Assembly: GCA_963781925.1 (NCBI GenBank)
Contig: CAWAHQ010000002.1
Location: 25,364 to 89,363, forward strand
Direction of reading: 5' to 3'
DNA: 64,000 nucleotides
Source of the DNA: an uncultured bacterium
Lineage (GTDB): Bacteria > Babelota > Babeliae > Babelales > Vermiphilaceae
Shown here: piece after piece, positions 4,206 through 48,342 of the stretch
Position numbering within the stretch: position 1 is the stretch's first letter
Layout of the letters: the number at the start of each line of letters is the position of its first letter
The notes under the pieces: model-generated
What the model saw: only the letters and a program-made list of their open reading frames with translations
Database searches by the model: none
Told to the model about the DNA's origin: nothing
Position numbers and translations under genes: made by a program

Positions 4206-4245
4206 GCATAGCTTCTATCCTTCGATACACCCTTAATCCCCAACT

Positions 4246-5010
4246 TCATTCCTCCGTTGGGGTCCCCATATGTGATGGAATAGAATATGGGGTAAGGGCA
4301 CTCAGGACGATCGGAAGAATTAATTGTTTATCCTCTTCACTATAGTCAGATTGCATCATATTTTGCAAAAAAGTTATTCGATGAAGAAAAGAATGGTGTT
4401 GTTTTTTGATAGCATGCTTATGGTGCACCGTGCCATACCCTTTATTATCCGACCACCCATAACCAGGAATGGCCTTATCATATAATGCCATCATGGCATC
4501 TCTTGTTACCTTAGCGGCAATGGATGCAGCTGCTACAGAACTTGATCTTCGTTCGCCTTTGGTAAAATAATAGACGGGAATAGTATGAAAATGTGTATCA
4601 GAAAGGTCTAATGGCATTGCATCAGTCAAAATTGCAGATGGCCGCGTGCCAGATGCTTCCAGTACGTGAATAAGCGCTTTCTTCATAGCGATCAATGTAG
4701 CTCGCCAGATATTATGCTCATCAATTGATCGATGATGAACTATACCAATACCATAGTGGCAATGCTTTTTAATCCACTGGAAAGCCTTTTCCCGTTCTTC
4801 CGGCGTCATAATTTTTGAATCTTTAAGCATCCGATGAGGCTTGCCGATGGGTAAAATAACTGCTGCTGCAACCACCGGGCCGGCAAAACAACCTCTGCCT
4901 ACTTCATCAATGCCGACCACAAGCATCTGCCGCTGCCAAGCATCGGTTTCAAATGAATTCTTCTTTATATTGCCTGTTTGTCGCGTTATGGTCATATTTT
5001 TCATTTCCAT
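4246..5010 (-). CDS. rnhB: Ribonuclease HII with a repeat-encoded C-terminal tail
   Basis: VGIDEVGRGCFAGPVVAAAV (RNase HII active-site DEDD region), DSKIMTPEERE, KGYG...H. The last ~17 codons overlap the repeat at 4259-4294. Confidence 0.85.
   Translation of the reverse strand: MEMKNMTITRQTGNIKKNSFETDAWQRQMLVVGIDEVGRGCFAGPVVAAAVILPIGKPHRMLKDSKIMTPEEREKAFQWIKKHCHYGIGIVHHRSIDEHNIWRATLIAMKKALIHVLEASGTRPSAILTDAMPLDLSDTHFHTIPVYYFTKGERRSSSVAAASIAAKVTRDAMMALYDKAIPGYGWSDNKGYGTVHHKHAIKKQHHSFLHRITFLQNMMQSDYSEEDKQLILPIVLSALTPYSIPSHMGTPTEE
4259..4294. repeat. Family-3 hairpin element (GGGGTCCCC...ATGGGGT) inside the rnhB 3-prime end
   Basis: GGGGTCCCCATATGTGATGGAATAGAATATGGGGTA. Same architecture as the copies at 25297, 33863 and 37874. 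Confidence 0.7.
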
Positions 5011-6378: not shown

Positions 6379-6420
6379 GATCATCCTGAGCTTGTCGAAG
6401 GAAGCCTTGGCGTAGTAGGG
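6379..6420. repeat. Single arm of the family-1 element fused to the AGCCTTGGCG module
   Basis: GATCATCCTGAGCTTGTCGAAGGAAGCCTTGGCGTAGTAGGG. Confidence 0.65.
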
Positions 6421-21909: not shown

Positions 21910-22076
21910 GCGCTCATCCTGATGCTTCGACTATGCTCAGCAGTAAACACCCGCCTGCCCTCCGACCGCGTGCGCCATAGCCTTTTGGCGACGGCGTAAG
22001 CCTTGGCGAAGGACGGGTTGAAGGATTTCCTCGAGCGCTCGAAGATATCCTTCAACAAGTTCAGGATGAGCGCGGG
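21910..22076. repeat. Composite element between ftsA and ftsZ: family-1 arms enclosing a family-4 module
   Basis: GCGCTCATCCTGA at 21910 pairs with TTCAGGATGAGCGCGGG ending at 22076. Internal GTGCGCCATAGCCTTTTGGCGACGGCGTAAGCC matches 61125-61156. Confidence 0.75.
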
Positions 22077-23424: not shown

Positions 23425-23580
23425 CCGTTCGCCCTGAGTGTTTTCCGAAGTTCCTACGCAGGAAAATGTATCGAAGGGTTGATTTTATGGATAATTCTTT
23501 CACATTGCTTTTAAACAAAATTAAAGAAGAATTACCCTTCGATACATTTTTTGAGGACAAAAAACACTCAGGGCGAACGG
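23425..23580. repeat. Family-2 MITE-like element (~155 bp) between ftsQ and ftsA
   Basis: Terminal IR CCGTTCGCCCTGAGTG / CACTCAGGGCGAACGG, inner IR GTATCGAAGGGT / ACCCTTCGATAC, AT-rich centre. Confidence 0.85.
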
Positions 23581-48272: not shown

Positions 48273-48342
48273 CGCGCTCATCCTGAACTTGTTGAAGGAT
48301 TAAGCGCGCTTTGATCCTTCAACAAGTTCAGGATGAGCGCGG
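48273..48342. repeat. Family-1 palindromic element, full copy, between rng and gatB
   Basis: CGCGCTCATCCTGAACTTGTTGAAGGAT-taagcgcgctttg-ATCCTTCAACAAGTTCAGGATGAGCGCGG. Confidence 0.85.

Follow-up and report, generated by a model that had tools for sequence, protein, structure and literature searches.

Hairpin arms and two-arm elements in a Babeliales genome and their association with a small GIY-YIG nuclease gene

Hairpin elements of the window and their genomic family

The window analyzed here is a stretch of 64,000 nucleotides from the 1.69-Mb assembly (38% G+C) of an uncultured MAG of Babeliales, and the gene neighbors of its elements are bacterial (ftsA, ftsZ, and alr), with homologues that bear the label Candidatus Babeliales/Dependentiae. 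It contains three full two-arm elements, one solo arm, and one degenerate arm. Copy 1 (23425–23580) lies between ftsA and an upstream ORF and is made up of a left arm (23425–23479), a center (23480–23533), and an inverted right arm (23534–23580); the left arm has a longer "B" hairpin (TTTTCC..GGAAAA), and the right arm has a short "A" hairpin (TTTTTTG/CAAAAAA). Copy 2 (28306–28450) occupies the alr-dNK spacer, and copy 3 (41076–41229) is located 94 bp upstream of tRNA-Gly(GCC); all three are listed without a strand. The positions of these full copies agree with the original prediction, as does the half copy that it placed at 57987, which is a single arm on the minus strand (57987–58042) consisting of CCGTTCACCCTGAGT, a hairpin, and GTATCGAAGGGT, with one mismatch in the terminal box. 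The earlier list of three full copies and a half copy missed a fifth member, a degenerate solo arm on the minus strand (4217–4314; CCGATCGTCCTGAGT ... GTATCGAAGGAT) that overlaps the 3' end of a minus-strand ORF (4246–5010) and has a two-hairpin module of ~70 nt at its variable position. The terminal 15-mer, CCGTTCGCCCTGAGT, has eight matches in the window at ≤3 mismatches compared with 0.43 expected, and at least eight matches were obtained in 0 of 100 shuffles. A perfect GC-rich, terminator-like hairpin (ATTGACCCTCGCCCGGCTTTTAAGCCGGGCGAGGGTCAAT) was also seen at 57919–57957, ~30 bp upstream of the solo arm.

The internal layout proposed for the full copies held in most respects. Perfect terminal inverted repeats (TIRs) of 16 nt are present in copy 1, but those of copy 2 extend for 15 nt (position 16 is A where G is required), and the TIR of copy 3 falls inside a 51-nt perfect palindrome formed by its arms. 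The inner inverted pair, GTATCGAAGGGT/ACCCTTCGATAC, shows no mismatch in any of the three. The AT-rich center, given as 50–60 bp, measures 54 bp in copy 1 but is slightly shorter in copies 2 and 3 (46 and 44 bp, respectively). The elements fold as ssDNA with z scores from −9 to −20 (copy 2, −41.6 kcal/mol and z −10.9; copy 3, z −20.4). Each copy had been expected to form one long hairpin; elements with unlike arms, such as copy 2, in which the local hairpins differ between the arms, are instead predicted to adopt a branched cruciform with an outer stem, two local hairpins, and an inner stem.

A census of the whole genome, with ≤2 mismatches allowed in the terminal boxes, confirmed that copies are present elsewhere: 132 arms were found, of which 48–51 pairs form full elements of 103–218 bp (about 50 in all) and the remainder are solo arms. 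Most copies are intergenic, and the intergenic elements lie between tandem genes in 36 cases, convergent genes in 8, and divergent genes in 4. The basic unit is the single arm, not the two-arm element; arms are also found alone, nested, and tail-to-tail. A typical element combines a short-hairpin arm (TTTTTTG/CAAAAAA) with a longer-hairpin arm, and a G-poor, pyrimidine-rich leader of ~8 nt precedes each arm. Some arms are nested within the hairpin of another arm, and some carry the ~70-nt two-hairpin module at the variable position.

Each arm reads CCGTTCGCCCTGAGT, followed by a self-contained, variable, and covarying stem-loop and then GTATCGAAGGG. According to the sequence and the fold, CCCT and AGGG are base-paired across an internal loop in which tandem G-A pairs can form. 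An outer stem of 4 bp or more without mismatches is present in 94% of the 68 distinct variable regions of this genome (29 different stems), compared with 4% of shuffles, and the same stem was detected in 66% of 137 variable regions from other phyla (62 different stems), compared with 7% of shuffles. The simple loops are mainly GCA, GAA, GTA, and AAA triloops; loops of the complementary sequence are nearly absent, which suggests that the structure is selected on one strand. C-GNA-G triloops are characteristic of stable mini-hairpins in DNA and are not known as a typical feature of RNA.

Two further features of the arms and their surroundings were noted. At three loci of Undibacterium arcticum (L035, L045, and L072), the arms are nested three deep, with CCGTTCGCCCTGAGTAGGT repeated and then GTATCGAAGGG repeated, an arrangement that resembles successive insertions into the hairpin position. 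In this genome, the flanks on the long-hairpin side often share an extra repeat (..GGTGGGATAAATATACATTTTATAGGTCACA), for example at C1:582535–582565 and C1:1388545–1388579, and in another subfamily GTCAATTTAAGAAAAATTATTACCC is common on the opposite side; larger composite repeats therefore exist.

Element ends, empty sites, and in-frame copies

Full elements are 88–91% identical from end to end, including the AT-rich center, and in many pairs the homology stops within one base of the CCG/CGG ends. No pair of copies is more than 91% identical except for one local tandem duplication, so the copies give no sign of recent movement. That duplication (C1:1453665–1454002) has a length of 193 bp, comprises a whole element together with its flanks, and is the only near-identical pair (98.6–100%). 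Inspection of the flanks for target-site duplications, a check put forward with the original prediction, gave a negative result: none was present in 47 of 48 elements, the single 2-nt match is at chance level, and flank alignment likewise revealed none. Palindromic per-site targets were also not found, with flank complementarity no higher than in mismatched flank pairs (z = 0.9). Two-arm elements were copied as units with sharp ends and without target duplication.

Filled and empty sites could be compared in relatives at the alr-dNK spacer and in ddl, murE, and mutL orthologues. In five genomes of the same genus, the orthologous alr-dNK spacer is 25–72 bp long and has no element; the exact empty-site junction was not recoverable there because the intergenic DNA of the relatives is too diverged (the nearest genome is ~80% identical in genes). 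Within coding sequence, arms occur in frame in ddl, in murE, in the linker of mutL, and in a region for a signal peptide; the insertions thus reach essential genes, and orthologues of ddl, murE, and mutL have empty sites. The genes with in-frame arms, or with a related mini-motif described below, are murE (C1:78048–79691), ddl (C1:151936–153264), mutL (C1:1374553–1376526), and the gene for an exported protein (C1:614658–616586), and the inserts read PFALS..VSKG or PFDT..TQGER. One ddl loop is a hot spot, and its arrangement varies by species within the genus: the loop is empty in four cases, has a single arm in one and a mini-motif in another, and has two arms tail-to-tail in three, all in frame. 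The closest MurE orthologues (72% identity) do not have the 44-residue insert, and other Babeliales MurEs have motif-coded inserts at different loops. The varied ddl and MurE arrangements indicate that arms are independent units and that either orientation is possible.

Dispersed copies, sharp homology ends, empty orthologous sites, and the ORF-bearing versions described below support the reading of these sequences as non-autonomous mobile elements. The TIRs, the small size, the absence of an ORF, and the large number of copies are features of a classical MITE, as proposed, but the missing target-site duplication and a partner gene that is not a classical transposase are not.

A GIY-YIG nuclease gene between the arms

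Two 408-bp elements (C1:113636–114043, with its ORF at C1:113699–113983, and C1:944857–945264) share their arms with the 150-bp elements and enclose only a 95-codon ORF, which is intact in one and has an in-frame TAA in the other. The sole domain of the 95-aa product is the GIY-YIG catalytic domain (PF01541, E = 3e-20, residues 4–75), and its nearest PDB structures are the UPF0213 proteins BH0048 and EF2693 (1zg2/1ywl), which makes it UPF0213/Slx1-like. UPF0213 proteins belong to the prokaryotic Slx1-like group, which has been treated as a group of vertically inherited repair nucleases (Dunin-Horkawicz et al., 2006).

A second family is built on a shorter motif. Two GIY-YIG paralogues (54% identity; C1:251872–252138 and C1:557397–557684), a second nuclease lineage of this genome, are bracketed by perfect inverted copies of a mini-motif, GCGCTCRTCCTGAACTTGTTGAAGGAT..GCGC, that is related to the arm. 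A search with CCTGAGCTTGTCGAAGG at ≤3 mismatches gave 88 matches in the genome, the majority in the GAAC form and about two dozen in the related CCGYTCRTCCTGAGCYTGTCGAAGGA form. Ten of these copies (GCGCTCATCCTGAACTTGTTGAAGGAT.. or CCTGAGCYTGTCGAAGG) are in the window, at 6385–6401, 10653–10703, 14484–14500, 15555–15571, 22049–22065, 34008–34024, 36674–36690, and 48282–48332, two of them as tight inverted doublets.

Part of the 150-bp family resembles the 408-bp cassette in its interior as well as in its arms. The subfamily that includes copy 1 of the window retains cassette-like end sequences: ~12 nt similar to the cassette start region (TAATCTTATGGA) lie beside the long-hairpin arm, and ~27 nt similar to the cassette 3' end lie beside the other arm. 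The resemblance fits an internal deletion of the cassette, which is likely, although the similar stretches are short and AT-rich. Global alignment was also used to derive the AT-rich center from the cassette, but this derivation was rejected: one subfamily showed similarity only over short stretches near the ends, and the rest showed scattered blocks.

The association between arms and nuclease was assessed in 40 relatives (41 genomes with our own), which are not phylogenetically independent. Of the 21 homologues with at least 50% identity in the 40 relatives, 12 were enclosed by a pair of inverted terminal boxes at ~60 nt from the ORF, and 4 had a box on one side; none of the 9 distant GIY-YIG genes had such a box. 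In a motif-agnostic comparison with 400 control genes, 25 of 32 homologues (≥45% identity) had inverted repeats at their flanks that exceeded the 99th percentile. Arms and close GIY homologues co-occur over the 41 non-independent genomes (15/8 versus 1/17; Fisher p = 1e-4). Some evidence points the other way: G016 (61% complete), G032 (89% complete), and G005 are relatives with numerous arms in which a close nuclease gene is absent.

In its exact form, the arm motif is widespread across several phyla. With one genome per species, the exact two-box pattern is found at more than 117 loci, with hosts in Sphingomonadales, Oxalobacteraceae, Gallionellaceae, Dehalococcoidia, Eisenbacteria, Binatia, and Babeliales. 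A nuclease homologue adjoins the arm at 3 of 117 random arm loci. Six of nine such arm-bearing genomes contain nuclease homologues; there are 14 of these, in Sphingomonadales, Solimonas, and another Babeliales genome, and 12 are flanked. Variants of the motif change with the nuclease (CCCTGAGC..GTCGAAGGG, TTTCGAGC..GTCGAGAAA, CCCAGAGG..AGCGAGGGG, and CCCTGAAC..GTTTCAGGG). In a maximum-likelihood tree, which is based on short proteins and has many weak nodes, all motif-linked nucleases form one clade (support 91/84), and the motif types map to subclades. Motif type follows nuclease clade across Babeliales and Proteobacteria.

The nuclease gene is not equally placed in all hosts. Cassettes are located at non-syntenic loci in most members of the genus, one cassette of this genome (g3) is syntenic with its counterpart in relative G004, and in Sphingomonadales one GIY gene is found at a conserved nrdR-GIY-methyltransferase locus. 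In Sphingobium spp. (loci L209, L211, L212, and L119), the GIY-YIG gene sits between nrdR and a SpoU/TrmH-like methyltransferase gene, and its frame is open into the methyltransferase (365–399 aa). A GIY-YIG-TrmH "fusion" was noted for Erythrobacter (Dunin-Horkawicz et al., 2006), and the open frame in Sphingobium probably explains it.

From the shared arms, the ORF-bearing versions, and the linkage to one nuclease clade, we think it probable that the 150-bp elements are gene-less DNA doublets of the hairpin arm that come from an arm, GIY-YIG gene, and inverted arm cassette, which would make them MITE- or REPIN-like derivatives.

Related systems, competing explanations, and a possible mode of movement

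The closest known system is Ssn/SRM, of which the present nuclease would be a relative. Single-domain GIY-YIG "Ssn" nucleases (cd10448) are flanked by NTS/SRM hairpin repeats that have hundreds of dispersed copies; their substrate is ssDNA alone, which they cleave on a single strand immediately 5' of the motif, and neither dsDNA nor RNA is attacked (Chenal et al., 2025, Nat Commun, PMC11893778). The Neisseria SsnA/NTS pair has been proposed to restrict or shape incoming or replicating ssDNA, Rickettsia is among the SRM-rich genera, and Ssn membership is set by CDD cd10448 or by BLASTP at E<1e-10 to N. meningitidis SsnA (CAX49033.1) (PMC11893778). The same authors point out the IS-like architecture and the analogy with REP/RAYT, and they suggest domestication (PMC11893778).

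The two systems have in common a single-domain GIY-YIG protein of ~95 aa, a gene bracketed by inverted hairpin repeats that are also dispersed in tens to hundreds of copies, co-variation of nuclease and repeat, a directional motif, an IS-like architecture, and enrichment in symbionts and intracellular bacteria. They differ in what is conserved: the present arms conserve the boxes beside the hairpin and leave the stem free, whereas NTS conserves the stem. The description by Chenal et al. also does not mention MITE-like units with two arms, nested copies, or insertions in frame within genes. The SRM pattern, HGTCWYN(0-2)YYVSBRHN(0-5)WNVSBRGN(0-2)RNCYNB, has 1 match in the genome compared with 1–5 in shuffles, and it matches the NTS control but neither the arms nor the mini-motifs. 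The present nuclease clade looks distinct, as it is separate from the only SRM-flanked GIY in the sample in a tree with weak nodes. At one locus of relative G033 (L197), two canonical SRM-pattern hairpins (TGTCATCCCCGGCTTTGAACGGGGATCCAG) adjoin a distant GIY-YIG gene; the Ssn/SRM type and the present type therefore both occur in the order.

Domestication, as proposed by Chenal et al. (PMC11893778), offers a different account of the elements, in which the arms are recognition sites of an ssDNA nuclease that serves the host, the elements are immobile, and the copy number reflects past expansion. The conserved nrdR-GIY-methyltransferase locus of Sphingomonadales, the synteny of cassette g3 with its G004 counterpart, and the 91% ceiling on identity between copies are all in line with this proposal. 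However, the cassettes are non-syntenic among most genus members, the in-frame insertions in ddl, murE, and mutL vary between species, and the nested copies resemble selfish spread; we consider a domesticated, immobile system unlikely. Domestication and past mobility are compatible and not mutually exclusive.

A structured non-coding RNA family, the alternative named in the original prediction, would turn the boxes into a tandem G-A/k-turn-like loop and would keep the variable helix through compensatory changes. The suggested covariance check did find such changes, with strong covariation of the variable stem over the 29 and 62 distinct stems, and the internal loop is conserved and the loops are strand-asymmetric, but compensatory changes are equally expected of a DNA hairpin that is read by a structure- or sequence-specific ssDNA nuclease. 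Moreover, the loops are mostly C-GNA-G triloops, the elements occur in all types of intergenic context, single coding genes and their mRNAs contain arms of both orientations, and the arms have a close link to a family of nucleases that was demonstrated not to act on RNA. Rfam, searched with gathering and E-value thresholds, gave no specific family and returned only generic plant-miRNA/MITE long-hairpin matches far below gathering scores. An RNA gene family therefore seems highly improbable. A K-turn/tandem G-A RNA motif was considered as a candidate and dropped because of the arms running both ways inside ORFs and the link to the nuclease.

REP/REPIN sequences, which are associated with RAYT, are hairpin repeats that occur singly or as inverted doublets and spread as units (Nunvar, 2010; Bertels & Rainey; PMC3337134). 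The present elements are likewise inverted doublets that spread as a unit with no target-site duplication, the enzyme gene is flanked by the repeats and is partly inherited vertically, and the hairpin start is GTAG-like in GC-rich hosts. It is nevertheless hardly credible that a RAYT, which is an IS200/IS605-type Y1 HUH transposase, mobilizes the elements: the enzyme found here is a hydrolytic nuclease of the GIY-YIG family, the arms show no linkage to a RAYT, Y1_Tnp is represented in this genome only by a 17.8-bit fragment, the Y1 genes of relatives are not arm-flanked, and Y1_Tnp is absent from 5 of 10 motif-bearing genomes of other phyla. The RAYT/REPIN model was accordingly rejected as unsupported by PF01797 in our own genome, the 40 relatives, and the 10 genomes of other phyla. 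The fragment itself (C2:10256–10336) is similar to the N terminus of a Y1 transposase, contains an internal TGA, and is probably a relic or a chance match. Origin as a classical MITE, descended from an insertion sequence with a DDE transposase and mobilized in trans, would account for the TIRs, the small size, and the many copies, but it is just as hard to credit given the lack of target-site duplication (48 elements), the single, nested, and tail-to-tail arms, and a GIY-YIG nuclease as the only ORF found between such arms.

Two other families of small repeats invite comparison. Like Neisseria Correia elements, the present elements are TIR-bounded, non-coding, ~150 bp in length, foldable, and present in many intergenic copies; unlike them, they have modular, independent arms, no target duplication, and no DDE parent among the ORFs between the arms. 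Rickettsia palindromic elements (RPEs) are reportedly 100–150 bp long, occur in an obligate intracellular host, and are said to lie in frame in essential genes, with frames open in both directions. The elements described here are also palindromic, of similar size, and in frame in protein-coding genes (ddl, murE, mutL, and a signal-peptide region), but the host phylum and the sequence differ and the present system has a candidate partner gene; the likeness is one of architecture. Literature searches on the arm peptide and DNA strings and on REP in Dependentiae yielded no description of the elements.

For the reading that we favor, in which the 150-bp elements are gene-less derivatives of the nuclease cassette, a mode of movement can be inferred by analogy with these systems. 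The cognate nuclease would recognize the arm as a folded single strand, namely the strand reading CCGTTCG..., which carries the tandem G-A mismatches and the GNA triloops. By analogy with SsnA, it would nick a few bases 5' of the arm, and a two-arm element would then be nicked once at either outer boundary, with the two nicks on opposite strands. The predicted nick points coincide with where copy-to-copy homology ends. GIY-YIG nucleases hydrolyze DNA without a covalent intermediate and cannot join DNA, so insertion would require host replication or repair, and the nuclease alone cannot explain integration. Insertion might proceed by copying from another copy or through released single strands that anneal at forks, and a route through host replication or repair would fit both the missing target duplications and the nesting in hairpin loops. 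Because no pair exceeds 91% identity, the ORF-less elements may be mobilized in trans or may be relics.

A bolder proposal, which we put forward only tentatively, is that the 408-bp unit is an autonomous ssDNA mobile element whose sole protein is a hairpin-guided GIY-YIG nuclease and that the 150-bp elements are its MITEs. To our knowledge, GIY-YIG nuclease chemistry is not recognized for prokaryotic transposons. The arm motif is presumably the source of the common spurious ORFs of the "PFALSLSKG / FDKLRANG" type, and, if the proposal is true, these ORFs would be the footprint of the element.

These data tie a very widespread bacterial hairpin motif, both intergenic and intragenic, to a specific clade of small nucleases, and they extend the partnership of Ssn and hairpin repeats to a motif class that is missed by the published SRM pattern. 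Comparative support for past or present mobility of the cassette, an idea that was only raised by Chenal et al. (PMC11893778), comes from unit copies without an ORF, empty sites, cassettes at non-syntenic loci, nested arms, and insertions in frame within genes. The elements may show where RPE-like "selfish DNA in genes" comes from in an unrelated intracellular lineage, and the nucleases and their motifs are new candidate nuclease/target pairs for ssDNA tools.
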